Assembly (NCBI GenBank): GCA_019309485.1 | Contig: JAFDGC010000001.1 | Coordinates: forward strand, 13,620-77,619 | Origin: Deltaproteobacteria bacterium | Lineage (GTDB): Bacteria > Desulfobacterota > Desulfobacteria > Desulfobacterales > UBA2156 | Reading direction: 5' to 3' | DNA length: 64,000 nt | Shown here: positions 7,813 to 27,055 of the stretch, piece by piece | Position numbering within the stretch: position 1 is the first letter of the stretch | How the letters are laid out: the number at the start of each line of letters is the position of its first letter | Made by a program: the position numbers and the translations under genes | The notes under the pieces: model-generated | The model's input: the letters and a program-made list of their open reading frames with translations, nothing else | What the model was told of the DNA's origin: nothing | Databases searched by the model: none

Positions 7813-7827
7813 GCGAAAGCCGTGCCA
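7813..7827 (-). promoter_or_regulatory. Sigma-54 promoter candidate upstream of degP
   Basis: The minus strand reads TGGCACGGCTTTCGC with exact GG-N10-GC spacing. It is intergenic, about 119 nt upstream of the degP ATG. Confidence 0.65.
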
Positions 7828-7841
7828 TGACGGTGGACGGC

Positions 7842-7874
7842 GAAATCAGAAATTCGAAATCAGAAATTCGAAAC
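7842..7874. repeat. Tandem 14-bp (2 x 7) repeat GAAATCAGAAATTC, 2.3 copies
   Basis: Direct read: gaaatcagaaattc gaaatcagaaattc gaaac. It lies in the AT-rich divergent degP/kinase region. Confidence 0.9.
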
Positions 7875-7997
7875 AATATCGAATGATCAAAATTCAAATG
7901 TTCGAAAAATACCCCGGGTTCACAAAGAACCGCTTTCGGTCATTCGGTCATTTGTATTTTGAATTTGTTTGCGGCGTTCGCCTTTAAGAACGACGAT

Positions 7998-8021
7998 ATT
8001 CGACATTCGAATTTCGAATTT
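7998..8021. repeat. Inverted counterpart heptad block ATTCGAC ATTCGAA TTTCGAA TTT
   Basis: The reverse complement reads AAATTC GAAATTC GAATGTC GAAT. This is the same GAAATTC heptad as at 7842-7874, in the opposite orientation. Confidence 0.8.
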
Positions 8022-8026
8022 AATCT

Positions 8027-8058
8027 ATCACCGTTCACTGTTCACTTTTCACTTGTGA
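8027..8058. repeat. Third GTGAACN-type heptad array, without the hairpin
   Basis: The sequence atcaccgttcactgttcacttttcacttgtga shares the heptad of the 4.6 kb and 6.2 kb elements. Confidence 0.7.
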
Positions 8059-8158
8059 TTTGTTTTCGGATGGTGGATAAAAAGTATCCATGTGACGGGA
8101 AAACCGTTCGGATCGGATACAAATTACCCGGGGGCCCTGCTCTTTCTGTCCCTTGACC

Positions 8159-8174: not shown

Positions 8175-8189
8175 TACCGTCTGAAGAAC

Positions 8190-9950
8190 ATGCATCGAAA
8201 ACCGCTTCAAAAAAAATTCTGGGCCATCGTCCCGCCCTGGGTCTTCCTCGGGGCGGTGGCGGTGCTGTTTCCCATATTTGCCTTTTTGACCTTTGAAAAC
8301 ATCAACCGGGAAAAGGAGAGCAGTTCCCGCCTGCTCCTGGAAAAAGGGGCGGCTCTCATCCGGGCCTTTGAAGCCGGGACCCGTACCGGAATGATGGGGA
8401 TGCACTGGGACGGGTTCCAGTTGCAGCGGCTTTTGACCGAAACCGCCCAGCAACCCGACATCGCCTACCTGCTGGTCACCGACACCCAGGGAAACGTCCT
8501 GGCCCATGACGATCCTTCCCGGATCGGGGGAAAACACGGGGAGGAAATCGACCTGAAAGGTCTTTTCGAATCCGACACCGTCCAGTGGCGGGTGGTGGAC
8601 ACCGAAGCGAATCAAAGGGTTTTCGAGGTGGTGAGCCGGTTTGCCCCTTCCGGCCCCATGATGGGGCGGCGTCACGGCCGAATGATGTTCGAGCGATTGT
8701 TCGATTCCCTCATGGAAAAAAGGCCCGAAGGACGCCTGCCAGGACTCGTCATCTTCGTCGGGCTTGACATGGAGTCCGTGGAAGAGGCCGTGAAAGCCGA
8801 CACCCGGCATACGGTGATCATGGGGGTGATCCTTCTGTTCATCGGTTTCGCCGGAGTCATCCTCCTCTTTTTGGCCCAAAACTACCGGGCCGCCCAGACG
8901 TCCCTTTCCCGGATTAAGGCCTTTTCCGACACCGTGGTGGAAAACATGCCCATCGGCCTGCTCGCCACGGACGCCGCCGGAAAAATCGCCTCCCTGAACC
9001 CGGTGGGAGCCTCCCTTTTGGGCCTCCGGACAGCCGAATCAACGGGCCGGAATATTCGGGAGATCCTGCCCCGGGAACTGGCGGATCTGATGCGGGAATC
9101 GACATTCGAGATTCCGGTGGAAAAGGAGATCGACTGCACCCTCAAGACCGGGGATAGCATCCCCCTGGAGGCCATCGTTTCCGGCATGCAAGAATATGAC
9201 GGAAGCAAACTGGGGTACCTGGTCCTTTTCAAAGACCTCACTGAGGTCCGGGCCTTGAAAAAAGAGATCGCCCGGAGTCAACGGTTGGCCGCCGTGGGGC
9301 GCCTGGCCGCCGGCGTGGCCCATGAAATCCGGAATCCCTTGAGTTCCATCAAGGGGTTCGCCGTCTATTTCAAGGAACGCTATCGGGAAAACCCCGAAGA
9401 CCAGCAGATCTCCGGAATCATGATCCAGGAGGTGGACCGCCTCAACAAGGTGGTGGGGCAACTCCTCGATTTTGCGCGACCCGTGACCATCAAAAAGAAA
9501 GGGGTCATCCTCGAGTCCTTTATCGCGGATTCGATCAAGCTCGTGGAACGCCAGGCAAAGGAAAAGGGGATCGATATTACAGTCCAGGTACCGGCGGATA
9601 CGCAAGCCGTCATGGATCCGGAACGGATCTCCCAGGTGCTGTTGAACCTGTACCTGAACGCCCTGGAGGCCATGGATCCCGGGGGGCGCATCCTTGTCGC
9701 TGCCGTGAAGAAAAACGAATCCAGGGAAGTGGAAATCCGAATCCGGGATACGGGCGTGGGGATCTATCCGGAGGATCTTTCCCATATCTTCGATCCCTAT
9801 TTTACCACCAAACCCACGGGGACGGGCCTGGGACTGGCCATCGTGCACAATATCCTGGAAGCCCATGGGACCCCTATTCAGTTTGACAGCCGGCCGGGGA
9901 AAGGGACCACCGTAACCCTCGTGTTCGAGGCTGCCGACAGGAAAAGATGA
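8190..9950 (+). CDS. Sensor histidine kinase, ZraS/AtoS-like (2 TM, periplasmic domain, PAS, HisKA, HATPase)
   Basis: H-box AHEIRNPLSSIKGF, G-boxes DTGVGI and GTGLGLAI, and two TM segments bracketing a ~165-aa periplasmic region. Confidence 0.9.
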   Translation: MHRKPLQKKFWAIVPPWVFLGAVAVLFPIFAFLTFENINREKESSSRLLLEKGAALIRAFEAGTRTGMMGMHWDGFQLQRLLTETAQQPDIAYLLVTDTQGNVLAHDDPSRIGGKHGEEIDLKGLFESDTVQWRVVDTEANQRVFEVVSRFAPSGPMMGRRHGRMMFERLFDSLMEKRPEGRLPGLVIFVGLDMESVEEAVKADTRHTVIMGVILLFIGFAGVILLFLAQNYRAAQTSLSRIKAFSDTVVENMPIGLLATDAAGKIASLNPVGASLLGLRTAESTGRNIREILPRELADLMRESTFEIPVEKEIDCTLKTGDSIPLEAIVSGMQEYDGSKLGYLVLFKDLTEVRALKKEIARSQRLAAVGRLAAGVAHEIRNPLSSIKGFAVYFKERYRENPEDQQISGIMIQEVDRLNKVVGQLLDFARPVTIKKKGVILESFIADSIKLVERQAKEKGIDITVQVPADTQAVMDPERISQVLLNLYLNALEAMDPGGRILVAAVKKNESREVEIRIRDTGVGIYPEDLSHIFDPYFTTKPTGTGLGLAIVHNILEAHGTPIQFDSRPGKGTTVTLVFEAADRKR

Positions 9951-11374
9951 TGAAAATACCCAACACTGTTCTGGTGGTGGACGACGATGCGGCCCACCGC
10001 TCCATGCTGAAAGTCCTCCTTTCGGAATGGGGGTACGAAATCTTCGAGGCCGATGACGGATCCGGCGCCGTCGACGCCGTGGAGAAGCGGCCCTTTGACC
10101 TGGTCCTCATGGACATCCGGATGGTCAAGGTGTCCGGCATCGAGGCTCTGGATCGGATCAAGGCCTTCAACCCGGCCATCCCCGTGATCATCATGACCGC
10201 CTATTCTTCGGTGGAGACCGCGGTGTCGACCCTCAAAAAGGGCGCCTACGACTACCTGACTAAGCCCCTGGACTTCGATAAACTGAGACTCACCATGGAA
10301 CGGGCCATGGAACACACGCGGCTCAAGGAGGAAAACAGGCTCCTGAAAGAAAGCCTGGGTGCGCATTTCGACCGCCGGAACATCATCGGCCAGAGCAAAC
10401 CCGTGGTAAAGCTTTTGGAGACCGTGGCCCAGGTGGCCCCGTCGGAGGCCACGGTGTTGATCACCGGGGAATCGGGGACCGGCAAGGAACTCATCGCCGG
10501 CGCCATCCATTTCAACAGCCACCGGAAAAACGGGCCCTTTGTGAAGATCAACTGCGCCGCCATCACGGAAACGCTTTTGGAGTCGGAGCTTTTCGGCCAT
10601 GAAAAAGGGGCCTTCACGGGCGCCGACCGCCGCAAGGAAGGCCGGTTCGTCCAGTCCCACGGTGGAACGTTGTTTCTGGACGAGATCAGCGAAATGTCGC
10701 TGCCCATGCAGGTGAAGCTCTTGCGGGTCCTCCAGGAGCGGGAAGTCACCCGGGTGGGAGGGGACCAGGTCCTCCAGGTGGATGTCCGCATGATCACCGC
10801 CACCAACCAGAACCTGGAGGAATTAGTCAAAGAGGGAAAGTTCCGGGAGGATCTTTTTTACCGGCTCAACGTCATCAACCTGGATGTGCCGCCCCTCCGG
10901 CAACGGCGGCCGGACATTCCGCTTCTGGCCCAGCACTTCCTCGAAACCCTTTCGGCCAAGAATCAAAAGACCATCAAAGGATTCACGCCCGGCGCCATGG
11001 ATTGGCTCATACGCTACGACTGGCCGGGAAACGTCCGGGAACTCATGAACGCCGTGGAACGGGCCGTGGTCTTGTCGAAAAGCGAAATGATCGCCGAGAC
11101 GGATCTTTCCATGCTCCCGGAATCCCCTGTTCAAGAGGAATCGGAAAAATACAGCGCCCTTGACGGCCAAACCATGGCCAACTTGCCGCTTGACGAAGTG
11201 GAAAAGGTCACTATTTTGAACACACTGCAGGCCGCCGGCGGGAATAAAAGCGAGGCGGCCCGGCGGCTGGGCATTACCCGCAAGACCCTGCACAAGAAGT
11301 TGAAAGCGTACGGTGTGGAGCCCTCCCGCCCTGAAGGGCGGGGCTCCCCGGTAGGGAAATTACCTATTTTTTGA
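9947..11374 (+). CDS. Sigma-54-dependent response regulator (NtrC/ZraR family: REC, AAA+, Fis-type HTH)
   Basis: VLVVDDD...DLVLMDIRM receiver, GESGTGKE Walker A, GAFTGA sigma-54 contact motif and a C-terminal HTH. It overlaps the kinase stop by 4 nt. Confidence 0.93.
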   Translation: MMKIPNTVLVVDDDAAHRSMLKVLLSEWGYEIFEADDGSGAVDAVEKRPFDLVLMDIRMVKVSGIEALDRIKAFNPAIPVIIMTAYSSVETAVSTLKKGAYDYLTKPLDFDKLRLTMERAMEHTRLKEENRLLKESLGAHFDRRNIIGQSKPVVKLLETVAQVAPSEATVLITGESGTGKELIAGAIHFNSHRKNGPFVKINCAAITETLLESELFGHEKGAFTGADRRKEGRFVQSHGGTLFLDEISEMSLPMQVKLLRVLQEREVTRVGGDQVLQVDVRMITATNQNLEELVKEGKFREDLFYRLNVINLDVPPLRQRRPDIPLLAQHFLETLSAKNQKTIKGFTPGAMDWLIRYDWPGNVRELMNAVERAVVLSKSEMIAETDLSMLPESPVQEESEKYSALDGQTMANLPLDEVEKVTILNTLQAAGGNKSEAARRLGITRKTLHKKLKAYGVEPSRPEGRGSPVGKLPIF

Positions 11375-11430: not shown

Positions 11431-11460
11431 GCCGTAAAACCCGTTTTGGAGAAAGCACTG

Positions 11461-11676
11461 ATGGCTGGAAAGGATGCATTCAAAATCCCCTGTTTGTCCT
11501 GCAAGGCCAAAAACCGGATTCCGCCCCAAAAGGAGGGGTTGCCCGCCAAACGCGGCCGCTGCGACATCATGAGCGTCCCCAATACGCTGGTTTTCGACAA
11601 CGGCCGTCTTGTGGAAAATCTCGTGGGGCAGATAGGCAAACACAACCTGATGATGAAAATGACCCGGTACCTGTAA
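11461..11676 (+). pseudogene. Thioredoxin-2 (TrxC-like) relic lacking the catalytic core
   Basis: 71 aa. The N-terminal zinc-ribbon-like CLSCKAKNRIP...RGRC joins directly to the Trx C-terminal strand/helix (VPNTLVFDNGRLVENLVG). No WCGPC motif is present. Confidence 0.5.
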
Positions 11677-11680
11677 ACCG

Positions 11681-12559
11681 ATGACCGGTCGAACCCCCAC
11701 CGGAAAAGAAGCGGCCTGCCGGGAGGCGGCCCGCCGGATTGTCCGGTACTTTGCCGAAGGCGTTCCCGTGACCGAAAAGATGCACCGCTACATGGAAAAC
11801 ACGTTCGCCGATCTATCGACACTGGAACGCATCCTTGCCGATTCGGAGCATGGGGAAAGGGCCTCCTTGGTCTCTTTGTTGTTTTCGCCGGATGAAGCCA
11901 TCCGTATTGAATTGGAACCGCTCCTGGAAAACACACCCCTGGATGAAGAAGAGGCACGCCGGATTCAAGACTTTGTGATGGAGATGCGGCCCCGGGCCCT
12001 TTTTGTCATTCCGGGAGGGTCTCCGGCCCTGGAGGTGACAGTCGATCCGGACGCGGCGGCGGCGTTCATCGAAAAGCTTCACGTCTCCCGGCGCCTGGAT
12101 CCCCGAGTGGTAAATGCCATCCACGCGGCGTTTCGTCATCGGGAAGGGGGTTCGGAAACTGAGTCCGACCACAAAAGAACCGTCCTTCGGATCAAAGCCA
12201 TGATCCGTCAGAGTCGAGCCGGTACCACCCGATTCGAAATCGACGCCCTGAGCCGGTTTTTTACGCGCTTTCCCATGGATGCCCCGGAAGCGTTTTCTTC
12301 GTTTTCTTTTTTTCTTGATTTTTTGGAAGCACCGGGGGATGAAGACGATCTTTACCAAAGCCTGCGCCGACGGCGGGATCTCTACCGGAAAGGACTGGAA
12401 AAAGGGGCGGCCGCGAACCGGCAGATGCATGAGAACAATCCGGAAACGCGGATGTTGTCGGGGCTTCGGCTCCCGTACGTGGACGCTTTCGATCTGATGC
12501 AAAAGATCGATATCCTCGACCGGATCTGCTTTTGGCTTTTCGAAACCCATGGGGAGTAA
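11681..12559 (+). CDS. Hypothetical protein (292 aa, acidic, no recognised domain)
   Basis: Long ORF in the same orientation as its neighbours. No family recognised. Confidence 0.55.
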   Translation: MTGRTPTGKEAACREAARRIVRYFAEGVPVTEKMHRYMENTFADLSTLERILADSEHGERASLVSLLFSPDEAIRIELEPLLENTPLDEEEARRIQDFVMEMRPRALFVIPGGSPALEVTVDPDAAAAFIEKLHVSRRLDPRVVNAIHAAFRHREGGSETESDHKRTVLRIKAMIRQSRAGTTRFEIDALSRFFTRFPMDAPEAFSSFSFFLDFLEAPGDEDDLYQSLRRRRDLYRKGLEKGAAANRQMHENNPETRMLSGLRLPYVDAFDLMQKIDILDRICFWLFETHGE

Positions 12560-13271
12560 GACGAAAATGGCGTTCTTTCTAAAGCGCATCCTCCCGGTAT
12601 GCCTGGCGATTTTTTTGGGGGTCGCCAGCGGCATTTGCGCCGAAGCAGTCTTGGACGGGACATCCGGCACCGCCGGGGACCCCGCCGCTCTCGAGGCCCT
12701 TCTTTCGGGAATCGAAACATGCTATGCCAATACCGCTTTTTCGGCCCGCTTCCATCAAACCTCCACCCTGGCGGCCATGGATATCACCGATACGGCGTCG
12801 GGGAAGATTTTCGTCAAGCCGCCGGACCGGATGCGCTGGGAGTACGACACCCCGGAAAAACAGATCATCGTCACCGACGGCAAGACCCTCTGGATTTACC
12901 GGCCCCTCGACAACCAGGTCATGCGGGGAAAAGCCCCGGCGTACCTGGGCGGGGGCCAGGGGGGGAGTTTTTTGTCCGACATCCGCACGCTGAAAAAGGA
13001 GTTCCAGGTCACCCTGGAATCCCACCAGCCCAATCTCCCGGCGGTGTTACGGCTTTCGCCCAAGGAACCCGTGCCCGAACTGGCGGCACTCCTGGTTTCG
13101 GTGGACCCGGAAACCTTTCACATCCTCCGCATCGTCACCCGAAACCCCTACAACGACGAAACCCGGATCACCTTGTCGGATTACCGGTTCGACCTGATCC
13201 TTGACGAGGATCTGTTTCAAATGAAAATTCCCGAATCCGCTGAGGTGTTCGAGCTGGAAGGAGAACGATAA
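12549..13271 (+). CDS. lolA: Outer-membrane lipoprotein carrier protein LolA family
   Basis: Signal peptide plus SGKIFVKPPDRMRWEYDTPEKQIIVTDGKTLWIYRP, typical of LolA. The start could instead be at 12567. Confidence 0.8.
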   Translation: MGSKTKMAFFLKRILPVCLAIFLGVASGICAEAVLDGTSGTAGDPAALEALLSGIETCYANTAFSARFHQTSTLAAMDITDTASGKIFVKPPDRMRWEYDTPEKQIIVTDGKTLWIYRPLDNQVMRGKAPAYLGGGQGGSFLSDIRTLKKEFQVTLESHQPNLPAVLRLSPKEPVPELAALLVSVDPETFHILRIVTRNPYNDETRITLSDYRFDLILDEDLFQMKIPESAEVFELEGER

Positions 13272-13274
13272 TCC

Positions 13275-14180
13275 ATGACCCGGGAACACGAAATGATCCG
13301 GCACCTGTTGGAAGAACGCCGGGGGATCCTCTTGGCCCATAATTACCAGCCCCCCGAAATCCAGGAGGCGGCCGATTTGTGCGGGGACTCCCTGGAGTTG
13401 AGCCGAAAAGCCGCGGCCACCGATGCGAAGGTGATCGTCTTTTGCGGCGTGCACTTCATGGCCGAAACCGCGTCCATCCTCTCTCCGGACAAAACCGTCC
13501 TTTTGCCGCGCGCCGATGCCGGGTGCCTGATGGCGGACATGATCACTGCCGAGGCCCTTCAAGAAAAGATCCGGTCCCTTCCGCCCATGCCCGTGGTCAC
13601 CTATGTCAACTCCACAGCCGACGTGAAAGCCCTTTCCACCATTTGCTGCACCTCGGCCAACGCCGTTCAGGTGGTGGAAAGCCTTGATGCCGACACGGTC
13701 CTGATGACGCCGGACCGGAACCTGGCCCAATACGCGGCCGGGCGCACCCAAAAGAAAATCCACTTCTGGGACGGCTTCTGTCCCACCCACGACGTGCTCA
13801 AGCCCGAAGACGTGGAAGAGGCAAAAAAGGCCCATCCGGACGCCGTCTTCATGGCCCATCCCGAGTGCCGACCCGAGGTATTGGCCTTGGCCGATGAAAT
13901 CCGCAGCACTTCCGGCATGCTGCGCTTTGCGCGGGAATCGCACCATAAGGCCTTCATCGTGGGAACCGAGACGGGGCTTTTGTATCCCCTTAGAAAGGAA
14001 AATCCGGGAAAAGCATTTTATCCGGCTTCGGAAAAGATGGTGTGCAATAACATGAAAAAGATCACGCTGGCGGATGTGATCCGGAGCTTGGAAAAGATGG
14101 AAAGGGAAATCAAAGTCCCCGAGGCCGTCCGGAAACCTGCCCTGAAGGCCGTGCAGCGGATGCTCGACCTCTCCGGCTGA
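13275..14180 (+). CDS. nadA: Quinolinate synthase
   Basis: [17 protein letters not shown]...[11 protein letters not shown] and the overall length (301 aa) match NadA. Confidence 0.9.
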
Positions 14181-14668: not shown

Positions 14669-14950
14669 ATGCATTGTTGTGAAAACCATCAGGATCCCCA
14701 GAAATACGCGGTTTCCATCTGTCCCGTATGCGGGATGGAAGTGCATCGCCCCAACCCAAAACTTGCGACCCTTTACAAGGGTCAAAAATACGATTTCTGC
14801 GTGGAGGCTTGTTTGAACGAATTCAAACGGCATCCGGAACGCTGCCTGAAAGCAAAAAAAGGACTCGAACCTCGGAAAATAGGCCTATGGGGACGATACC
14901 TGGATCGGCTCAACAAGGCGACCGGCGGCAAAGCCATCAAATGCCATTGA
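14669..14950 (+). CDS. YHS/TRASH-domain metal-binding protein
   Basis: CPVCGMEV....YKGQKYDFCVEACLNEFKRHPE fits the YHS pattern. Strong AAGGAGG RBS. Confidence 0.8.
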   Translation: MHCCENHQDPQKYAVSICPVCGMEVHRPNPKLATLYKGQKYDFCVEACLNEFKRHPERCLKAKKGLEPRKIGLWGRYLDRLNKATGGKAIKCH

Positions 14951-15074: not shown

Positions 15075-15461
15075 TCAGAGGGAGGTGATCACATTTTTCA
15101 GTTTATTTCGTACCTGTTCGGCAATTGACCGGAGTTCCGGGTTTTCGATAGCCTGCATCGAGGCGAGAGGATCGACCGCGGACACTTCGATGCCTCCTTC
15201 TGGAAGCTCTCTGAGAATGACATTGCAAGGAAGCATGGTGCCTATGTGTGATTCAACCTGCAACGCCTGATAGGCAAAGTTCGGATTGCAAGCCCCGAGA
15301 ATTTTGTAAGGCGGGAAATCAACGCCCAGCTTCTTCTTCAGCGTTGCTTGCACATCGATTTTTGTCAGCACACCGAATCCTTCTTTTTCCAGTTGCCCAA
15401 CGACCCGCGTTTCGGTCTCGGCAAAGTCGGTATCCAGTTGTCGACTGAAATGATAATTCAT
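15075..15461 (-). CDS. DUF302 domain protein
   Basis: Start trimmed to MNYHFSR (GGGAGAAG RBS). EKEGFGVLTKIDVQATLKKKLGVDFPPYKILGACNP is typical of DUF302. Confidence 0.75.
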   Translation of the reverse strand: MNYHFSRQLDTDFAETETRVVGQLEKEGFGVLTKIDVQATLKKKLGVDFPPYKILGACNPNFAYQALQVESHIGTMLPCNVILRELPEGGIEVSAVDPLASMQAIENPELRSIAEQVRNKLKNVITSL

Positions 15462-15590
15462 GTTTTCTTCTCCCTTGTCGATTGTGGGTAGATGTTTAAA
15501 TCTCCATGCACGATTTTTCATGATGGCTCAAAAACAGCCTTATCGGCTCGTGGCGCTGTTCATGAGAATTCCACTGCCATGGACGGGTCA

Positions 15591-16289: not shown

Positions 16290-16346
16290 AAATTCGAAGA
16301 CCTCATCCAGGGTCATACCTGCAGGGATCCGCCGGATCCGCCGCTC

Positions 16347-17418: not shown

Positions 17419-19784
17419 TCAAATGTCCTTGCTTTTCAAACGCAGTGAATTGCCGACCACAGACACCGAACTGAAGCTCATGGCGGCCGCAGCGATCATC
17501 GGAGAAAGCAAAAGCCCGAAAACCGGATACAGGGCACCGGCGGCGATCGGAACCCCCAGTGCATTGTAAAAAAAAGCAAAAAACAGATTCTGTTTGATGT
17601 TGCGCATGGTGGCCTTGGAAAGGAGCACTGCCCGAACGATTCCCCGAAGATCGCCCTTGACCAGCGTCACCCGGGCGCTTTCCATGGCCACATCGGTACC
17701 CGTTCCCATGGCGATGCCGACCTGGGCCTGAGCCAGCGCCGGCGCGTCATTGATGCCGTCTCCGGCCATGGCCACGATTTTTCCTTGTTCCTGAAACCGC
17801 TTGACGGCATTGGCCTTGTCCTCGGGCAACACCTCGCCAACGGCATCGTCGATCCCCAATTTTTCCGCAACAGCCCTGGCGGTGGCCTTGTTGTCGCCCG
17901 TGAGCATCACGATCCGGATGCCTTCTTTATGGAGTTTATCGATGGCTTCCGGCGTTGTTTCCTTGATGGGATCCGAGACGCTGACAATGCCGGCCGCTTT
18001 CCCCTCTATGGCCACGAACATGGCGGTTTTTCCTTCGACACGCAGTTTTTCCGCTTGATTATCCAACTTCCGGTGTGGGACTCAAAATTTTGGGCATTTT
18101 CCAGTTTGATGCCCCTGTCTTCGGCTCCGGAGACAATGGCCGCTGCAAGCGGGTGCTCACTGCTTCTTTCCAGGCCGGCCGCAAGGGCGAGCAAATCTTT
18201 TTCGTTCCATCCTTCGACGGTGATCACATCGATCAGTTTCGGTTTCCCTTCGGTGAGGGTCCCCGTTTTGTCCACCACCAGCGTATCCACCATACGCATG
18301 GTTTCGATGGCTTCAGCGTCTTTGAAAAGAACACCAAAAGTGGCGCCTTTGCCGGTCGCCACCATGATCGACATGGGGGTGGCCAGGCCCAGAGCGCAGG
18401 GACACGCGATGATCAGGACCGAAACTGCGGCGATCAAAGCATAAGCCATACTCGGTTCAGGCCCGATCAGGGACCATACAATGAACGCGAACACGGCCAC
18501 TCCGATGACCGCCGGCACGAAATAGGCCGCCACAACGTCGGCCAGTTTCTGAATGGGTGCCCGGCTCCGCTGGGCTTCGGCCACCATTTGAACGATCCGG
18601 GAGAGCACGGTGTCTGCGCCGACCTTTTCCGCCTGGATCACCAATGATCCTTTGGTGTTGACCGTGGCCCCGATGACCGAATCCCCTTCCCTTTTCTTCA
18701 CGGGAATCGGTTCCCCGGTAATCATCGACTCGTCCACGTTACTTGACCCTTCCAGAATCCGTCCGTCCACCGGCACCTTTTCCCCGGGACGAACCCGCAG
18801 CCGGTCGTTTACCTGAATTTGATCCAGCGGCACGTCTTGTTCCGTGCCGTCTTCTTCAATACGCCGTGCGGTCTTGGGCGCAAGCCCGAGCAGGGCCTTG
18901 ATGGCGGCACCCGTGCGGCTGCGGGCCCGCTGCTCCAGCATCTGGCCGAGCAAGACAAGGGTGACGATCACGGCCGCCGCTTCGAAATAAACGCCCACCG
19001 TACCGTCTTCCGCCCGAAAAGACGGCGGGAATGTTTCCGGAAAGAATACGGCCACCACGCTATACACATAGGCCACGGCGGTGCCCAGACCGATGAGGGT
19101 GAACATGTTCAGGTTCCAGGTCACGATGGATCTCCACGCCCGCACATAAAAAATCCAACCCCCCCATAAAACAACGGGGGTCGCCAGCGCGAATTCCGCC
19201 CAGTGCAAAACACCGCTTCCAAGGGTTTGTTCCAGGACTTCAAGGCCGAAAAAATCCCGCATGGCGATGATCAGCACCGGAAGAGAAAGGACGGCCGAGA
19301 CCCAAAACCGGTTTTTCATGAAAATGTATTCCTGGTTTTCCTGCTCGACAACTTCCACGGTTTTGGGTTCCAAGGCCATACCACACTTGGGACACGCTCC
19401 CGGGCCGTCCTGCACCACTTCCGGATGCATGGGGCAGGTGTATTCCGTCTTCTCCCCCGAAACTCCGGGCATATCCGGTTCCAGGGCCATGCCGCACTTT
19501 GGGCAATCCCCGGGGTGTTCTTGACGGACTTCCGGATGCATGGGGCAGGTGTAGACGCTCCCCTTTTCGGCCTTTGGGGGAAGTGAAGCGATGCTTTCCG
19601 AATCACCGGATGCATAACGCTCCGGATCGGCCTTGAATTTTTCCAGGCAGTGTTGACTGCAAAAATAAACGGGCGCTCCGTGGTAGTTATAGGATATATA
19701 GGATTCCGGGGATTCGGTCATCATCCCACAGACCGGATCGGTGACCCTATGTTTTGTGTCCGTCACGGCGGCAGTATTTTTCAT
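17419..19784 (-). pseudogene. copA: Copper/silver P1B-type ATPase disrupted by an internal deletion plus frameshift
   Basis: Two overlapping ORFs (18006-19784 and 17419-18066). The first carries a YHS domain, two CPMHPEV..CPKCGM domains, CPC and DKTGTLT. The second carries [10 protein letters not shown] and the final TMs. The junction FESHTGS / [14 protein letters not shown] lacks about 30 residues seen in homologues. Confidence 0.75.
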
Positions 19785-19799: not shown

Positions 19800-20450
19800 T
19801 CAAATTTCATTTGCGATCTGCCGCCATTTCTTTTTCCCGGGAAAAAAGCGCGGGACCGCATCCATGTAGTTTTGGTACTCGGTGCCGAACCGCCGAATCA
19901 TGTGCGCCTCTTCCTTTTTGGCCAGAGCCACATACGCCAGGACAATCACCGGAAAGAGGGCGAGTGTCGGCACGGTGGGCCAGTGGATGAGCTGACCGAT
20001 CAAGGCCAGGAAGATGCCCGTATATTGGGGGTGCCGCATGTATCCATACAGCCCGGAAGTGATCAATTGATCCTCTTTTTGTGCCCGGTGGATCAGACCC
20101 CAGCCCCGAATGAGCAGATACAAACCGACAAGGATCAGACTGTAACCGAGCAGCATTTCAACGGCCGCGCCGGTATCACCGTATCCCAACAGCGTGGCCC
20201 AGAGATGCCCCCGCATGTGCAGCCACGGAATGTCCAGGTGCAAATAGCGGGTGAGCAGGTAAATGGTCAGCGGGAATCCGTACATTTCCGCATACAAGGC
20301 AACCACGAAGGCCTGGACAAGACCGAGATTCCGCCATTCCTTGAACTTTCTCGGCGCCAGAAAACGATACAGAATCCAGGAAACGAGCACGATCATAAGA
20401 ACCGCCGCCGGCCAATGTCCACCAATCGGGAATCCTGAAACATCATTCAT
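19800..20450 (-). CDS. Isoprenylcysteine carboxyl methyltransferase (ICMT/PEMT) family membrane protein
   Basis: LITSGLYGYMRHPQYTGIFL...EEAHMIRRFGTEYQNYMDAVPRFFP is an ICMT-family signature. Confidence 0.8.
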   Translation of the reverse strand: MNDVSGFPIGGHWPAAVLMIVLVSWILYRFLAPRKFKEWRNLGLVQAFVVALYAEMYGFPLTIYLLTRYLHLDIPWLHMRGHLWATLLGYGDTGAAVEMLLGYSLILVGLYLLIRGWGLIHRAQKEDQLITSGLYGYMRHPQYTGIFLALIGQLIHWPTVPTLALFPVIVLAYVALAKKEEAHMIRRFGTEYQNYMDAVPRFFPGKKKWRQIANEI

Positions 20451-20637
20451 GACCGTCTCCTTTCCCTTTGCCTCTATGCCTGTAGCCCTTCATTGTCCAA
20501 AAATGCATGGCGACACATCCGATGAGCAAGAGAAGAACAAAACCATTCGATTCGATGCCCATGGAAGACAAAGACAGCAGCAGGGCCAAAGGAAGCAGAC
20601 AGGCCGCCAGCATTACAATGTGATGCTTCATTTCCAA
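20443..20637 (-). CDS. DUF2933-like small membrane protein
   Basis: 64 aa with two TM segments and a His-rich C-terminal tail (CVAMHFWTMKGYRHRG). It overlaps the ICMT start. This pairing is common in metal-resistance loci, as far as I recall. Confidence 0.6.
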   Translation of the reverse strand: MEMKHHIVMLAACLLPLALLLSLSSMGIESNGFVLLLLIGCVAMHFWTMKGYRHRGKGKGDGHE

Positions 20638-20677: not shown

Positions 20678-21085
20678 TTATTTTCCATTCCGGCCGGCTC
20701 CGAAAGGATCGGCGTTTCCATTTTCCGAAGGGTTGCTCTCCGGAAATCGGCCCTCTTGTCGATATTGTTCGTTTCGCCGGTAATCCTTTTCTTGTTGATG
20801 ATAAGGCGTCTCATACCGGTGACGATCCTCGTTAAACCGCTCCGGATAGTGCCTTTGACCTCGGTCATCCCCACGGCCGTACCGGCCTGGGTCCATGTGC
20901 CCCCATGATCCGCCGTATCCTTGTCCGCCCATCATGCCGCCGCCGCCCATGCCACCGCCCATGCCTCCGCCGCCCATCATGGCAAGAAAAGGGGTATCCT
21001 CGGCGGCGCCGGCGGAATTCATCAAAGCGGCTCCGGAAAGGGCCAGCAAAATCATCATCCATCCGATCAAAATATGGCGTTTCAT
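20678..21085 (-). CDS. Secreted Gly/Met-rich then His/Arg/Tyr/Glu-rich protein, unknown family
   Basis: Signal peptide, then MMGGGGMGGGMGGGGMMGGQGYGG, then a charged low-complexity tail. Confidence 0.6.
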   Translation of the reverse strand: MKRHILIGWMMILLALSGAALMNSAGAAEDTPFLAMMGGGGMGGGMGGGGMMGGQGYGGSWGHMDPGRYGRGDDRGQRHYPERFNEDRHRYETPYHQQEKDYRRNEQYRQEGRFPESNPSENGNADPFGAGRNGK

Positions 21086-21170: not shown

Positions 21171-21680
21171 TTATCGCCAGCACCAGCCGGTGCCCGGGCC
21201 ATAGCCGCCTTCAAACCGCCCGCCGATTTCCGGGGCGATTTTTCTAAGTTCCAGCTCATGGTCCAATCGCTTCTGGTCAAACTCGCTTTCCAGCCCGGAA
21301 AGCTCCCTTTGCAACGCCGAGATACGATTCCGGTCCGGGTTTTCTTTGGCAAGCTCCCGGCGCATTTCCACGGACTTGTTGTAGATGCGTTCCTGCAGGG
21401 CACGGATTTCCCGGTAAAAGGCCTCTCTGGTTTTTTCCAGCTGTTCGGCCTGGTTCCGGCTGAGGCCGAGATCCTCCCCATCACCCCAACCGCCCCGGGG
21501 GCCGTAACCCATCATGTTCCCGCCGTAGCCGGGGCCCATCATATGCCCGCCCCAACCGCGATCCATCATGTGGCCGCCGTACCGGTTGCCTTCGAACCAT
21601 CCACGGGCAAAGGCAAAGGGGGCTGCCCCGATTACTACGACAAAAGCGACGATTGCCAACTGCTTCATTCTTTTCTTCAT
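21171..21680 (-). CDS. Periplasmic heavy-metal-stress protein, Spy/CpxP/ZraP-like
   Basis: Start trimmed to MKKRMKQLAIVAF (signal peptide). GHMM/GWGG repeats are followed by a helical LSRNQAEQLEKTREAFYREIRALQ region. Confidence 0.75.
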   Translation of the reverse strand: MKKRMKQLAIVAFVVVIGAAPFAFARGWFEGNRYGGHMMDRGWGGHMMGPGYGGNMMGYGPRGGWGDGEDLGLSRNQAEQLEKTREAFYREIRALQERIYNKSVEMRRELAKENPDRNRISALQRELSGLESEFDQKRLDHELELRKIAPEIGGRFEGGYGPGTGWCWR

Positions 21681-21758
21681 GTTGATGCCTCCTTTTCGCG
21701 TTTTTTCGCTTCGACCCGAAATGCCTTCGGGGCCAAAGCCGTTTGTAAATCCAAGCAT

Positions 21759-21773: not shown

Positions 21774-21927
21774 CAAGGTGGTATTTATCATTTTTTTCCT
21801 ATTTCCCTAAAATCATTATGCAAGAAAGCGTCCGGGCACTGAGTTTCAGGGAAGCCAACGCCGGTGGGAACAAACGTATAAAAAAACTGTATCGTTTTTA
21901 CCCGGTTTTTCCCTGGATCGGATTAAG

Positions 21928-21959
21928 TGTGTAAAAAGTATACATGCTGTCTTTTTCAC
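21928..21959. promoter_or_regulatory. Imperfect inverted repeat (gTGTAAAAAG-N12-CTTTTTCAC) between two divergent sigma-54 promoters
   Basis: Direct read. It is a possible upstream activator or bending site. Confidence 0.3.
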
Positions 21960-22180: not shown

Positions 22181-22690
22181 ATGATGAAAAAAATCGGATT
22201 GGTCGTCAAAACCTTCGACGATCGCACCGCGGAAATCATGGCCGACAAACAAAGCGCCTGCGGCGGATGCCAGGATACCCGAAAATGTAAATCCTGCCTT
22301 TCCGGAAGTGATAAGGTGGTGTCCCTCGTGCAGAATCTTGCATCCGCCGCACCGGGAGACGTGGTGGAGATTCAACATACCCAGGCCGCTCTATGGGAAA
22401 GCGCCGCCCTGTTTTACGGCGTTCCGGTCTTGGGGCTCCTGGCAGGGGCTTTCATCGGCGGGAGCGCGGCAAACGGCTGGGGCATGGACGAATCCGCCGG
22501 GGCCGCGGCAGCCGGAATCGCGGGCCTGATCCTGGGTTTGCTCGTGGTGGTCTTTTCCTCGAAAACCGCATTTGGCCGGCGGCGATGGATCCCCCGCATC
22601 GTCCGCGTCATCGAAGACGGCGGAAAACAAGGGGACCGGGATATCACCAGCGCCGACCACGCCTCGAATCCATCCTGCTGCAGCGGGTGA
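22181..22690 (+). CDS. RseC/MucC-family (SoxR-reducing system) membrane protein
   Basis: The N-terminal beta domain has a Cys cluster (CGGCQDTRKCKSC), followed by two TM helices. GGAG RBS. Confidence 0.65.
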   Translation: MMKKIGLVVKTFDDRTAEIMADKQSACGGCQDTRKCKSCLSGSDKVVSLVQNLASAAPGDVVEIQHTQAALWESAALFYGVPVLGLLAGAFIGGSAANGWGMDESAGAAAAGIAGLILGLLVVVFSSKTAFGRRRWIPRIVRVIEDGGKQGDRDITSADHASNPSCCSG

Positions 22691-22698
22691 TAAAGAGA

Positions 22699-23427
22699 AT
22701 GTTTCGCTTCTTTAAAAAACGTGTGCAAAAGAATGCCTCCGATTTCATTTTACCGCCAGAAGCCCAGATACAATTCTGGCGCAAAGCCAATCGCAAAATG
22801 AAATGGGGGATCAGCGAAGAAGAATTTATGCGCATCCCGAATGCGCCGCCACTATCGGCCAAAGACCAAGCAGACGGGTATGTTGGCGCGGTTTTGTCTT
22901 ATGGGTTCGGTGATGACGGTGAAGGGAACGCCGATGCCGTGTTATCGGGCCGATTGGCATGGGGGTTTGCGCAAAAGCGTACATGGACACAAACCTGGCA
23001 ATGTCGTTACATCGATTTTGACAAAAAGGACCATTTTCGCCTGCGCCCCAAAGCGCCCCCGCGACCGAAAGGATTCTATTACGCCAAATTCAGGCCCGGC
23101 GACGATCTGCTTTCCCCTACGGTTGCAAGCTACTTGAAATCCCTTTCCGGGGATACCGGTTGCGGCCCGGAAGGACTCCAGATGATTACCCTTTCCAATC
23201 CCCATATTGCGGAACGGATGAACAAAAGGCAGATCGCGTTTATGGCCCTGGCCGATTACGACGTGGCGCCTTACGGATATGAAGATTTCTTCGATTGCCT
23301 GCAGATATTTTGCAGTAACGATACACTGGGCTTGGGAATCGGGAATGTGGATCAGGTGTATCCCCTATTCGGCATCCCTTCTCTTCGATTCGATGACAGG
23401 GACAACATCCAAAACGCCAAGACATAA
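22699..23427 (+). CDS. Hypothetical soluble protein (242 aa)
   Basis: Start trimmed to MFRFFKK, 9 nt after the rseC-like stop. No family recognised. Confidence 0.55.
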   Translation: MFRFFKKRVQKNASDFILPPEAQIQFWRKANRKMKWGISEEEFMRIPNAPPLSAKDQADGYVGAVLSYGFGDDGEGNADAVLSGRLAWGFAQKRTWTQTWQCRYIDFDKKDHFRLRPKAPPRPKGFYYAKFRPGDDLLSPTVASYLKSLSGDTGCGPEGLQMITLSNPHIAERMNKRQIAFMALADYDVAPYGYEDFFDCLQIFCSNDTLGLGIGNVDQVYPLFGIPSLRFDDRDNIQNAKT

Positions 23428-23534
23428 ACCGGATGGAATTGAGGAGACAGACATTTCGAATTTTTGTATAATGAGCTTCAGGTGCCTGAATATAAAATGG
23501 AAAGTATCACGGAAGCGTGTTAAGGAAAACGTTA

Positions 23535-25373
23535 ATGAACGGATCCACGAAAACCCGTCTGTTTTCCACCGGAACGATCATCGATGGAAAATGGATCCTC
23601 ATGGAATGCATCGGAAAAGGGGCGATGGGGGAGGTGTACCGGGCCCATCAGCTCAACCTTAAACGCGACGTGGCCATCAAAATCGTTTCCCGGGAATTCC
23701 TTGAAAGCCTCCAGGACGATCCTGCAGAAGTCGAGCGTGCCTCCCAGCGCCTTCAGCGGGAGGTGGAAACCATGGCACAGGTGCGGCATCCCAACGTCCT
23801 CCAGATCTTCGACTTCGGGGAATTCACCGTGACGCAGGATAACACCGTCCACCCCATGCAGTACATCGTCATGGAGTATGTCCCGGGCAACACATTGCGC
23901 TTTACCATGTCCGAGGAAGGGTTCGGGGAGGACGAAGGGCTTTTTCGCGATTGGATCCATCGATATTTTTTCCCCGTGCTGGATGCCATGGAATCCGTTC
24001 ATGAAAAAGGGATCATTCACCGGGACATGAAACCGGAAAACGTTCTCATGGATCAAGAAACACCCAAAATCGCCGATTTTGGGCTGGCGCGAAGCATCCG
24101 AATGCGCGCCATTTCCGATTCCTGGGACGTCAAAGGGACCATCCATTACATGGCGCCGGAACAGTTCGTTGACTTCCGGAAAGTCGGGCCCGCGGCGGAC
24201 ATTTACGCGTTGGGGAAAATTCTTTTCGAAGTAGTGGAAGGCAAAATCCCGCCCACCACCGTCCCCCTGAAATCATCGGCTCTTACGGACCCGAAACGCC
24301 CGTTTTTTCAAAAAGTGGATGCAATTATTCAAAAAGCCACGGCGGAAAACCCCGCCGAGCGGTTCCAGGATATTGCCGAATTGCGCGCGGCCCTGCTGGA
24401 TGTCATGAAGCACGACACACCGGACCCCGGAAAAGAAAAGGCGACAACGTTGTCTTCCCGGAGCCGGCCTTGGATGATGTTCACCGCCGCGGCGGCGGTG
24501 CTCGCCGTGACGGCAATGGCCCTCTGGCACTGGATGGGCAATCCGGCGGCGTTTTTCACGGCGCGAAAAGCCCCGCCGACGGAAAAAACGATTTCCGTCA
24601 CCGCCGGCTCCCCGGCTCCGGAGATACGCGCCAAAGACGGGATGGCCATGGTGTTGATCAAAGGAAAAGAAGCCTCAATCGACGATGTTCCGCTCCAGGA
24701 GGCTTTCTATATGGATCGGGAGAAAGTGTCCCTGCACCATTTCGCGGAGTTTTTAAACCAGGTCAAAGACACCCTGACCGTGGAAAAAGGAAGGGTGCTT
24801 CAAGACGGCAAAATCTTGCTTTATATGGGTACCGGCACCGAACCCCACGAACAGATCTACTTCGAGCATGGGCGATTCCATCTTCGGGATCCTGCCTTTG
24901 CCGGCCGCCCCGTGGTCCGCGTGACGTATGCCGGCGCCCTCGCCTATGCGGCGTATTACGGAAAACGTCTGCCGACGACGGCCCAGTGGCGACAGGCCGT
25001 GGCCTGGCTCCATTCCCAGGTGCCGGATTTTTCCGCGGCATCCGAAACCCAAGGTGCTTCCCCAATGCCGGCCGGCCACATGCACATGATGGATGTTTCT
25101 TCGAAAGACACCGGAACATCTGCGGCCCCGGTTCCCTCCAGGACAGACCTCCCGCTGGAAGACCCCGGTATCCGCATCAAAGAATGGGCAATGGAAGGCG
25201 GAGCCCCCGCCACTCCGGATCTGGTCCCGGTCATCTCCTGGGAAACACTGATTTCGGATGAAACACCGAAATCCCGGTATCGTTCCGAAGGGTTTCCCGA
25301 CGTGGGATTTCGAACCGTGATCCCGGTGGTGTTCACTAAAGCGCGGCGCCCTCCCGCCGGGATGCGGGATTAA
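23535..25373 (+). CDS. Receptor Ser/Thr protein kinase: Hanks kinase, one TM, FGE/SUMF1-like ectodomain
   Basis: GKGAMGEVY, AIK, HRDMKPENVLM and DFGLAR kinase motifs. TM segment MMFTAAAAVLAVTAMALW. The C-terminal VRVTYAGALAYAAYYGKRLPTTAQW is FGE-sulfatase-like. A GTG at 23517 is an alternative start. Confidence 0.85.
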   Translation: MNGSTKTRLFSTGTIIDGKWILMECIGKGAMGEVYRAHQLNLKRDVAIKIVSREFLESLQDDPAEVERASQRLQREVETMAQVRHPNVLQIFDFGEFTVTQDNTVHPMQYIVMEYVPGNTLRFTMSEEGFGEDEGLFRDWIHRYFFPVLDAMESVHEKGIIHRDMKPENVLMDQETPKIADFGLARSIRMRAISDSWDVKGTIHYMAPEQFVDFRKVGPAADIYALGKILFEVVEGKIPPTTVPLKSSALTDPKRPFFQKVDAIIQKATAENPAERFQDIAELRAALLDVMKHDTPDPGKEKATTLSSRSRPWMMFTAAAAVLAVTAMALWHWMGNPAAFFTARKAPPTEKTISVTAGSPAPEIRAKDGMAMVLIKGKEASIDDVPLQEAFYMDREKVSLHHFAEFLNQVKDTLTVEKGRVLQDGKILLYMGTGTEPHEQIYFEHGRFHLRDPAFAGRPVVRVTYAGALAYAAYYGKRLPTTAQWRQAVAWLHSQVPDFSAASETQGASPMPAGHMHMMDVSSKDTGTSAAPVPSRTDLPLEDPGIRIKEWAMEGGAPATPDLVPVISWETLISDETPKSRYRSEGFPDVGFRTVIPVVFTKARRPPAGMRD

Positions 25374-26953
25374 CTTTTCACGAAATAGTTGCGCATCATG
25401 CCCATATCTTCGCGTTCCAGATTGTGGCAATGGTATAAAAACATCCCCGGGTAGTCATCAAAATCCACCCATATCCGGATACTCTCGCCCGGCATGAGCA
25501 ACACCGTGTCTTTCCATCCTTCATCCACATAGCCGCCATGCGTCACGCCCCTTCGTTCGATGACCCGGAACGGTTTTCCATGCAAATGGATGGGGTGCGG
25601 CATATGCATCATCCCCATCATCCCGCCGCCGGTGTTGTGGAATTCCCAGATCTCCTTTGAGCCCAATTGGACCATTTCGTCCGCGGCCACGTCTTCCATC
25701 TGAAACACCCGCCCATTGATCGACCATTGCATGCGCTGCATGAGAAGATAAAACCGCCGGGGATGGGAAAGATTCACCGCTTCGTCGAGCCGGGGAAGCT
25801 TCATCTCCGCCAGTTTCTCCGGCAGGGACCCGTTTTTTTTCCCGCGCTTGGTCACGTGGATCTTGAAAACAGCAAATCCTGCACCGTCCGGAAGGCGTGG
25901 ATTGAAACCCATCCTTCCCCCCATCATCATGCCGCGCCCCATCCGTCCACCGCCCATTCCTCCGGGGTCGAAAGGCAGGCTGATCAATGCGGTCTTGAAA
26001 CCCACCGGGCGGTCGCTGAAATCGGCCCAGATCTCCAGCCGCTCCCCCGGGCCTAAAAAGGCATACCGGCGTATTACGGGCCTTTCCAAAAGCCCGCCGT
26101 CCGTCCCGATGACGATGAGAGGGCGGCCGTCTTCCCATGCCAACCGGTAGATTCGGGCATTGGACCCGTTCAGCAGGCGCAGCCGATACGCACCGGCGGA
26201 TACCGGGAGGGCAAAATCGGGCAGCCCGTTCACCAGGATCCGATCCCCCAGGAATCCCGTCATCCGCTCCATCATGTGCCCGGACAAATACAACAATTGA
26301 TTGTCCGGACCAAAGCTCCGGTCCTGAATCACCAGCGGCACATCGTATTTTCCGTCGGGCAGGCCCGCGGCGCGCTCCTCGTCGTCGGATACGAGGAAAA
26401 GACCGGCCAAGCCGCGATACACCTGGGAGCCGGTGCGTCCGTGGGGATGCGGATGGAACCAGTAGGTACCGGCTCTGTTTTTGATCGTAAATTCGTAAAG
26501 ATAGGACCGCCCTTGGGGAATCACATCCCGCGGGTGACCGTCCATGACGGCGGGCACATGCAGGCCGTGCCAGTGGACAATGGAGGGTTCCGGGATGGCG
26601 TTGTCAAAGCGGATGCGAATCCTCTCTCCGCGATGCGCCTTGATGATCGGGCCGAGATAGCCATCCGGCATTTCGAGGACGCGGTTTGCGTCTCCTTTAT
26701 GGAGGGTGGCGTGATACCGCCACACCCGGGTGGGGATTCCGGGAAAGACGGCCGCTTCCCCCGGACGTGCCGTAAGGGTCAAATCCAGATCGGGTAAAAA
26801 TGTCTCATCCGGTACCGTCTTTGAAATCCGCTCCGCGGATGCGCAGTTCAACAGCGGCCATATAGCACCGCTGATCAAACCCAGGGTGCCATAACCCGCC
26901 AGTTTCAGGAATCGTCGCCGTTCGTTTTCGGTAAAGACCATGCGCTGTTTCAT
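25370..26953 (-). CDS. Tat-exported three-domain multicopper oxidase (CueO/PcoA-like) with a Met-rich insert
   Basis: ERRRFLKLAG Tat motif. Copper-site motifs HWHGLH, HPHPHG, HPIHLHG and HCHNLEREDMGMM. Insert GGMGGGRMGRGMMMGGRMG. Start trimmed to 26953 (AAGGAG RBS). Confidence 0.9.
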   Translation of the reverse strand: MKQRMVFTENERRRFLKLAGYGTLGLISGAIWPLLNCASAERISKTVPDETFLPDLDLTLTARPGEAAVFPGIPTRVWRYHATLHKGDANRVLEMPDGYLGPIIKAHRGERIRIRFDNAIPEPSIVHWHGLHVPAVMDGHPRDVIPQGRSYLYEFTIKNRAGTYWFHPHPHGRTGSQVYRGLAGLFLVSDDEERAAGLPDGKYDVPLVIQDRSFGPDNQLLYLSGHMMERMTGFLGDRILVNGLPDFALPVSAGAYRLRLLNGSNARIYRLAWEDGRPLIVIGTDGGLLERPVIRRYAFLGPGERLEIWADFSDRPVGFKTALISLPFDPGGMGGGRMGRGMMMGGRMGFNPRLPDGAGFAVFKIHVTKRGKKNGSLPEKLAEMKLPRLDEAVNLSHPRRFYLLMQRMQWSINGRVFQMEDVAADEMVQLGSKEIWEFHNTGGGMMGMMHMPHPIHLHGKPFRVIERRGVTHGGYVDEGWKDTVLLMPGESIRIWVDFDDYPGMFLYHCHNLEREDMGMMRNYFVKS

Positions 26954-27040
26954 TGCATATCTCCTTTGCGGGGCTGTTTTACATCTTTTTTCCCCATTAA
27001 AGCCCGTTTTTTGAACATCTCCTGCTCGGATAAGTCTAAC

Positions 27041-27055
27041 GCAATGCAGATGCCA
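27041..27055 (-). promoter_or_regulatory. Sigma-54 promoter candidate upstream of the multicopper oxidase
   Basis: The minus strand reads TGGCATCTGCATTGC with exact spacing. It lies 88 nt upstream of the start codon. Confidence 0.65.

Follow-up and report, generated by a model that had tools for sequence, protein, structure and literature searches.

We suggest that a gene island in a 64-kb stretch of contig JAFDGC010000001.1 from a Deltaproteobacteria bacterium of the order Desulfobacterales (contig positions 13,620 to 77,619; hereafter the window, numbered from 1) is the core of a sigma-54 regulon for metal, probably copper, and envelope stress that is controlled by a ZraS-like histidine kinase and a ZraR-like enhancer-binding protein (EBP). 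We put the probability of this reading at about 0.72. In this model, seven predicted -24/-12 promoters, P0 to P6, serve the island. Four of these lie in two divergent regions, P1/P2 and P4/P5, and because candidate enhancer dyads fall in both regions, the degP-RND, kinase/EBP, zraP-like/P1B-ATPase and rseC-like operons would be tied to one EBP. The original prediction had placed these four operons in a single regulon together with the YHS and multicopper oxidase genes behind P3 and P6. For P1, P2, P4 and P5, whose dyads are the top-scoring ones in the window, a single regulon is well supported; for the YHS gene, the oxidase gene and the SHOCT gene behind the additional site at 170-184, which are connected to it by association alone, membership is plausible but unproven.

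In the mechanism that we envisage, a periplasmic metal or folding signal would be sensed by the kinase and result in phosphorylation of the EBP. The EBP would then oligomerise on dyad pairs of the type TGKRTA-N5-TAYMCA that are placed between divergent -24/-12 promoters and, through DNA looping and ATP hydrolysis, would open sigma-54 holoenzyme complexes in both directions. Sequence and comparison together establish three predicted modules of this kind. Module A would drive the operon for the DegP-like protease, outer-membrane factor (OMF), membrane-fusion protein (MFP) and RND permease from P1 and the zraSR-like operon from P2; module B would drive the cluster from a zraP-like gene to copA from P4 and the operon from an rseC-like gene to a Ser/Thr kinase gene from P5; and module C, located to the left of the window, would drive copZ-P1B-ATPase(HMA)-lgt in one direction and a third zraP-like (Metal_resist) gene in the other. 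We infer that P0, P3 and P6 likewise count among the sigma-54 promoters of this functional set; what signal is sensed, how far the transcripts reach and where they start (positions below) are predicted in the same manner.

Predicted sigma-54 promoters and enhancer dyads

All six -24/-12 sites of the original prediction are present with exactly the letters quoted, lie between genes and face their genes. A seventh site, P0, had been overlooked, and in all seven the GG and GC elements are separated by exactly 10 nt. On both strands of the window (128 kb), TGGCAY-N6-TGC has six matches versus 0.89 expected; five of these are among the six sites and the sixth is P0. Scored with an approximate sigma-54 matrix, P3 (14608-14622(+), TGGCACGGCTTTTGC) is the best consensus site with 19.5 and 0 mismatches, followed by P0 (170-184(-), TGGCACAAAGATTGC; 17.4), P4 (21759-21773(-), TGGCACGATCCATGC; 16.6; predicted start ~21747), P1 (7813-7827(-), TGGCACGGCTTTCGC; 15.8; predicted start ~7801, leader 107 nt), P2 (8159-8173(+), TGGCATTTGTCTTGC; 15.5; predicted start ~8185), P5 (22056-22070(+), TGGCATACTTTATGC; 13.2) and P6 (27041-27055(-), TGGCATCTGCATTGC; 11.8; predicted start ~27029). 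Thus, five of the seven score >=15.5, and P6 is the weakest. For P0, P3 and P5, the predicted starts are near 158, 14634 and 22082, respectively.

As the null model, we used composition-preserving block shuffles (100 runs). Seven matches >=13 were observed versus 1.68 in the shuffles (maximum 6 in 100), and five matches >=15 versus 0.35; the enrichment is confined to the top of the score distribution. Every match >=13 is non-coding and aimed at a start codon 5-107 nt past the predicted start site, although non-coding DNA makes up a mere 9.7% of positions 1-27250. It had been proposed that equally good matches at similar density in coding DNA would speak against the sites. This objection fails for the strong sites, because the coding DNA of the window contains zero matches >=13, while 27041-27055 (P6) is no better than background. 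Together, these data support that the predicted sites behave as genuine sigma-54 promoters. Mismatch counting against TGGCACG-N4-TTGCW was uninformative (at 2-3 mismatches, 6 versus 8.5 expected and 72 versus 87).

The individual promoters differ in detail. P0 lies 3 nt past the RND stop codon and precedes the gene for a 113-aa Gly/Met-rich SHOCT membrane protein (PF09851; ATG at 113), with the predicted start site 45 nt before the ATG. P1 has CGC in place of TGC in its -12 element and is otherwise one mismatch from TGGCACG-N4-TTGCW. P3, as a perfect consensus promoter, must on this prediction require an activator. The predicted start of P2 is just 5 nt before the kinase ATG at 8190; in two related loci introduced below, L004 and L084, this distance is ~4 nt and ~1-2 nt, respectively, and the kinase/EBP mRNA from P2 would be nearly leaderless. 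The degP leader contains the element TTGCAA-GTT-TTGCAA (7766-7780, ~+21 to +35 from the P1 start), which is identical in L084 and might act as an operator or form a small hairpin in the RNA.

The regulators predicted to act on these promoters are a PAS-domain histidine kinase (8190-9950(+)) and an EBP with receiver, AAA+ and HTH_8 domains (9947-11374(+)). Their assignment as a ZraSR-like pair is borne out by the best NCBIfam matches, ZraS for the kinase (431.6 bits, cut-off 479) and ZraR for the EBP (570.4 bits, cut-off 760). Among genomes, the EBP has its nearest relatives in a Desulfobacterales metagenome-assembled genome (71%), Syntrophus (69%), Smithellaceae (67%) and Desulfobacula (59%), and the identity to Shigella ZraR is 57% over the best segment. 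In the Smithellaceae and Desulfobacula loci, the kinase/EBP pair is divergent from a zraP-like gene; sigma-54 sites lie ahead of zraP in both loci and, in Desulfobacula, ahead of the kinase too. Synteny is mostly not kept around 80 EBP homologues, and useful loci are limited to L004, L006, L007 and L009; in the GC-rich loci L008-L013, crude open reading frame (ORF) calls were too unreliable and were left unused. L004 shares the gene order histidine kinase-EBP-LolA-NadA and has a sigma-54 site at the position equivalent to P2. The recognition helix of the HTH domain is identical in the window EBP, L004 and L006.

The intergenic regions of L004, L006 and L007, between zraP and zraSR or upstream of the kinase, each contain two copies of the dyad TGKRTA-N5-TAYMCA, 32-41 bp apart. 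We built a first dyad matrix from these six sites, leaving the window out of training, and a second from 21 sites in independent loci. With the first matrix, the top three matches in the entire 64-kb window are 8074-8090 (22.4), 21928-21944 (18.3) and 8114-8130 (16.3); with the second, the top four are these three and 21888-21904 (12.1). For comparison, 2.19 Mb of unrelated loci contain 38 dyads >=12.5. The four dyads form two pairs, with one pair in the P1/P2 intergenic region and one in the P4/P5 intergenic region, and the spacing within each pair is 40 bp, as compared with 31-42 bp over all loci. Between P1 and P2, UAS-A1 (8074-8090, TGGATAAAAAGTATCCA; 22.4 and 21.5 with the two matrices) is a perfect palindrome centred at -103 from P2 and -281 from P1, and UAS-A2 (8114-8130, CGGATACAAATTACCCG) scores 16.3 and 17.6. 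Between P4 and P5, UAS-B1 (21888-21904, TGTATCGTTTTTACCCG) scores 10.6 and 12.1, and UAS-B2 (21928-21944, TGTGTAAAAAGTATACA) scores 18.3 and 17.2 and shares 16/19 bases with the UAS-A1 block. This second pair is placed symmetrically, at -146/-186 from P5 and -149/-189 from P4. For ZraR itself, the enhancer is listed as not known in a review of Salmonella EBPs (PMC4987338).

Module C was likewise overlooked in the original prediction. It was found on L164, a contig of the same strain that extends leftward past window position 1 and there carries SHOCT, TPR and lgt genes as well as a third Metal_resist gene, from which copZ and a second P1B-ATPase gene diverge. The module (L164 18374-18780), ~5 kb to the left of window position 1, has sigma-54 sites at L164 18442-18457(-) and 18696-18711(+) with scores of 12.8 and 16.8 and two dyads, at 18523 and 18565, that are 42 bp apart and score 13.4 and 13.8. 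Immediately beyond the SHOCT gene, ~270 bp to the left of the window and ~440 bp downstream of P0, there is an orphan dyad (L164 13618-13634, TGTGTTATAAGTATCCA; 15.4), after which come tandem heptamers with the units ACAGTGA and GTGACGA. The TPR gene beside this dyad has no sigma-54 site facing it, and none other was found nearby; the dyad may serve P0 from downstream.

Conservation and recurrence

The contig L084 is syntenic with the window at roughly 92-95% amino-acid identity, and the cores of P0-P6 are all kept in it. The P1/P2 region provides a footprint: L084 keeps the P1 core and leader, the UAS-A1 block, UAS-A2 and the -24/-12 elements of P2, whereas the 233 bp that separate P1 from the dyads, like short stretches between the kept blocks, are replaced. 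UAS-A1 is unchanged amid diverged flanks, and UAS-A2 reads CGGATACAATATATCCA, with the dyad kept and nearer consensus. The P3 core is conserved in L084, and that of P4 is conserved with one spacer change. The replaced spacer between P1 and the enhancer (7828-8060) consists of short tandem repeats with a period of 7-8; in L084 it has other repeats and is 60 bp shorter, giving an altered enhancer-to-P1 distance. Its repeats in the window are GAAATCAGAAATTCGA (twice), an ATTCGAN series, GTCATTCG (twice) and GTTCACT (three times), and two of its 11-mers, CGTTCACTGTT and TTTCGGTCATT, recur in the P4/P5 spacer.

The arrangement also recurs at larger distance, as L131 and L166-L169 repeat it, and the linked gene families are thus found repeatedly behind the same type of promoter and enhancer. 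In L131, whose ATPase is 61% identical, a sigma-54 site and two dyads lie upstream of a small gene plus copA, and a second set of a sigma-54 site and a dyad pair lies upstream of an RseC-family gene. The four contigs L166-L169 hold oxidase homologues that are 69-74% identical; a PAS kinase is near in three of the four, with a sigma-54 EBP beside the kinase in two. In all four, sigma-54 sites, most of them with dyads, lie ahead of operons in which a zraP-like gene, in some cases followed by a small gene and a SHOCT gene, leads to the oxidase gene. A YHS gene of L166 is preceded by a sigma-54 site that has a ZraR-type dyad, and in L168 and L169, operons of a SHOCT gene and an FGE-domain kinase gene lie behind sigma-54 sites.

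These recurrences allow a wider proposal, which we make tentatively and at somewhat less than even odds: an undescribed sigma-54 copper/envelope-stress regulon may exist across Desulfobacterota-like lineages, with a ZraSR-like system, paired TGGRTA-N5-TAYCCA dyads and members beyond the classical metal genes, i.e. Gly/Met-rich SHOCT proteins, RseC-like proteins, YHS proteins and a Ser/Thr kinase with an FGE domain. If so, the two-component system would induce a second, possibly metal-sensing, signalling layer.

One regulon or several

Several observations weigh against the proposed regulon. With regard to the promoters, the sigma-54 matrix is an approximation of the Barrios 1999 consensus and not a published table, and neither an RpoN box nor an rpoN gene was found within the window. 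Outside P1/P2, the promoter regions are 80-91% identical to L084 and thus too close to footprint P3, P4/P5 and P6; core conservation at these promoters is therefore weak evidence. The score of P6 is not above chance when taken alone, because two other sites score alike: 17399(+), in the wrong orientation, and 59738(+), within a long ORF by a crude gene call. With regard to the enhancers, the two dyad matrices rest on few sites (6 and 21), the second set having been chosen by means of the first, and the enterobacterial zraP-zraS spacer matches the dyad weakly (8.1). With both matrices, no dyad above noise was found within 350 bp upstream of P0, P3 or P6; a single weak dyad ahead of P3 (14495-14511; 10.4-10.9) is at noise level, and with the refined matrix the P3 and P6 candidates still did not rise above it. 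With regard to the regulators, ZraS and ZraR are the top NCBIfam matches but below the equivalog cut-offs, and AtoC, with 559 bits, comes near ZraR; the pair is therefore ZraSR-like and not a strict member of the family. Moreover, the window encodes a second EBP, and others are surely encoded elsewhere in the genome.

The strongest alternative builds on these last points. It holds that there are several regulons, in which the ZraR-like EBP acts on P1, P2, P4, P5 and module C only, while P0, P3 and P6 are under another EBP, e.g. a copper-specific one. We regard this as a real possibility, if a rather doubtful one. The EBP genes expected of sigma-54 promoters are present, and dyad pairs accompany P1, P2, P4 and P5 but not P0, P3 and P6. 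Related bacteria such as D. vulgaris have many EBPs (PMC4641369), and a separate pair of EBP and promoter, missed in the original prediction, exists in the window at 50947-52583. This second EBP (50947-52299(-); PAS, sigma-54 activator and HTH_8 domains by Pfam; missed by a GAFTGA regular expression) is divergent from a sigma-54 site at 52568-52583(+) (AGGCATCAAAATTGCT; 13.3) that precedes an MBL-fold gene (52729-53835), and two direct repeats, TTTGTTCCCTTTTTTA, different from the dyads, lie by its promoter at ~52434-52479. This set looks like a separate regulon, and because the second EBP has its own site and repeats, not every sigma-54 site in the window would belong to one regulon. By contrast, the island promoters in question have links to the ZraR-like system: the YHS gene of L166 has both a sigma-54 site and a ZraR-type dyad, the oxidase and SHOCT genes are elsewhere found in operons behind such promoters and beside an orthologous two-component system, the orphan dyad (15.4) adjoins the SHOCT gene, and P6 and the module C promoter of copZ are closely similar (13/16 bases alike). 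A motif common to the upstream regions of P0, P3 and P6 was also sought; it amounted to a few 9-10-mers in P0 and P6 only, not collinear and probably due to chance. Scans for inverted repeats upstream yielded a single 8-nt repeat at P3 and a single palindrome at P6, both unconvincing. The latter, TGGGTC-TGCAG-GACCCA (27163-27179), is perfect, lies ~-142 from P6 and scores 6.6-8.6 with the dyad matrices; L084 keeps its half-sites with an altered spacer, and it is a possible, weak candidate enhancer.

It is unlikely that GG-N10-GC strings arising by chance in AT-rich intergenic DNA account for some of the weaker sites (P6 above all, and perhaps P5) and that the genes behind these sites use other promoter types. 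The score of P6 (11.8) invites this explanation, as the shuffles yield 5.3 matches >=11.5 per window and the two stray sites at 17399(+) and 59738(+) equal it, and the nearest relative, L084, is too similar for its conservation to be informative. Against this, both P5 and P6 are correctly oriented and lie 76-100 nt from start codons. P5 is part of a symmetric module with a dyad pair, and rseC is predicted to be sigma-54-driven in L131 as well. For the oxidase, a scan for sigma-70-type promoters gave no correctly oriented candidate, the sole match (27080-27108; 9/12) being on the opposite strand, whereas oxidase homologues lie behind sigma-54 sites in four lineages.

Finally, the idea that the entire set is a chance cluster of consensus-like strings without sigma-54 function could appeal to the approximate matrix, but it is highly improbable and effectively refuted by the five sites >=15, all of them in the small intergenic fraction, by the selective conservation in L084, by the adjacent EBP gene and by the recurrence of the arrangement in unrelated contigs.

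Known systems and gene content

ZraR activates the divergent sigma-54 promoters of zraP and zraSR (PMC4987338). The regulon proposed here resembles this ZraPSR (HydHG) system in having an NtrC-type EBP and a kinase, whose operon would be autoregulated, in the predicted divergent sigma-54 promoters that flank a shared enhancer, with one of them driving the kinase/EBP operon, and in a periplasmic ZraP/CpxP/Spy-type target behind a sigma-54 site (zraP-like protein 1 behind P4). However, degP-OMF-MFP-RND, and not zraP, is divergent from the kinase/EBP operon in the window, while adjacency of zraP is found in the relatives L006 and L007. Strict membership in ZraPSR fails, because the equivalog scores are below cut-off and zraP is not adjacent; the weak dyad match in the enterobacterial spacer is a further difference. 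Induction by Zn/Pb and feedback repression by ZraP are further hallmarks of ZraPSR. The scale differs as well. In E. coli, the direct ZraR targets are only four genes, zraP, zraS, zraR and mgtA, in one study (PMC7657598), and another is cited for effects on acr, raiA and rpoH (PMC10848872); here, there are at least three divergent modules and three single promoters, and the content is oriented toward copper (P1B-ATPases, CopZ, oxidase, CopB and YHS proteins).

A breadth of this kind had been called unusual, and it is less so in view of M. xanthus CorSR, an NtrC-type system with four putative sigma-54 promoters that already ties such promoters to a multicopper oxidase and a P1B-ATPase and has its own genes as part of the system (PMC3707914). 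The resemblance is functional only. The curA locus is one co-directional nine-gene operon with internal promoters, and it lacks divergent modules, a described enhancer motif and DegP, RND, ZraP, RseC and SHOCT components. CpxAR similarly combines a periplasmic protease (DegP) with LTXXQ chaperones or modulators (CpxP, Spy) under envelope or metal stress, but CpxR is OmpR-type and sigma-70-dependent, whereas in the island an AAA+ EBP would act on -24/-12 promoters. CusRS and CopRS exert two-component control over RND efflux and/or a multicopper oxidase, often from a divergent intergenic region; in contrast to the regulators in the window, they are OmpR-type and use sigma-70 promoters and a copper box, and their RND pump, CusA, is of the heavy-metal type. 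A paper on the sigma-54 regulome of D. vulgaris, the copper transcriptome of D. alaskensis and papers on C. metallidurans offered no relevant precedent. Because the proposed mechanism is that of ZraPSR and the CorSR precedent exists, we consider the system a variant of known ZraSR/CorSR-type circuitry, that is, a putative ZraSR-like regulon in multiplied form, oriented toward copper, whose enhancer motif can be derived and which includes some unfamiliar members.

Known biology is extended and no new principle is added. Sequence alone yields a testable enhancer consensus and, in uncultured anaerobes, a much larger regulon in which one sensor would be tied to a periplasmic protease, an RND pump, ZraP-type chaperones, copper ATPases and an oxidase. 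The SHOCT, RseC-like and YHS proteins and the FGE-domain kinase become candidate new players in copper/envelope homeostasis, and the promoters could serve as a compact set from which to build metal biosensors or with which to annotate regulons in metagenome-assembled genomes of Desulfobacterota.

Pfam and NCBIfam confirmed the gene labels given previously. The operon behind P1 (187-7694(-)) encodes the DegP-like protease (6228-7694; Do-family protease, 505 bits in NCBIfam), the OMF (4635-6200; Pfam), the MFP (3342-4532; Pfam) and the RND permease (187-3345). The permease matches the multidrug family RND_permease_2 with 472 bits versus 296 bits for CusA/CzcA in NCBIfam; by these scores, the pump is predicted to be nearer to multidrug than to CusA/CzcA metal pumps. 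On the other side of module A, the EBP gene is followed in the same direction (11460-14180(+)) by a small ORF and by genes for a 292-aa protein without assigned function, a LolA-like protein and NadA, all of which may share a transcript with the kinase/EBP pair. P3 is followed by the YHS-domain gene (14669-14950(+)).

The metal cluster behind P4 (15075-21692(-)) has eight genes. It begins with zraP-like protein 1 (21171-21692; Metal_resist, ZraP/CpxP-type; PF13801, 43.7 bits with a cut-off of 29.2), for which the best NCBIfam match is ZraP with just 32.8 bits, and continues with a Gly/Met-rich secreted protein (20678-21085), a small membrane protein (20443-20637), an ICMT-like methyltransferase (19800-20450), a Cu P1B-ATPase with YHS and HMBD domains (17419-19784), zraP/Spy-like protein 2 (16552-17295; LTXXQ), a CopB-like protein (15591-16520) and, as the last, a DUF302 protein (15075-15521). 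In the window, the ATPase gene is frameshifted into two overlapping ORFs and the CopB gene is broken as well, whereas contig L001, which is 99.6-99.7% identical and from the same JGI sample series, has intact copies of 784 aa and 241 aa; the breaks are either small indels between strains or assembly errors. Behind P5 lie the rseC-like gene (22181-22690(+)), a gene of unknown function (22702-23427(+)) and the gene for a Ser/Thr kinase with a C-terminal FGE-sulfatase domain (23517-25373(+)). The CueO-like multicopper oxidase behind P6 (25370-26953(-); Pfam) has CueO as its best NCBIfam match, with 296 bits, under the cut-off.

The island is modular. L084 lacks the block of DUF302, CopB and zraP-like protein 2 genes (15075-17295) and the unknown gene after rseC (22775-23441); instead, other genes occupy ~1 kb of L084 from nadA to the promoter of the YHS gene.

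Next to sigma-54 metal operons of this kind, three other lineages (L167-L169) also encode a Ser/Thr kinase that ends in an FGE-sulfatase-like domain. The FGE fold is copper-dependent in FGE enzymes. The FGE-domain kinase may constitute the second signalling layer; a metal-sensing role for it is pure speculation.

Lastly, in four metagenome copA loci from a different lineage (L095, L098, L099 and L158), a conserved sigma-54-like site, TGGCATGCCTGATGCA, lies ~360-470 nt upstream of copA, with a gene for a small membrane protein with a GGCCGGHGGH motif between the site and copA and a ZraR-type dyad absent. Sigma-54 control of copA may be widespread and rely on other activators.

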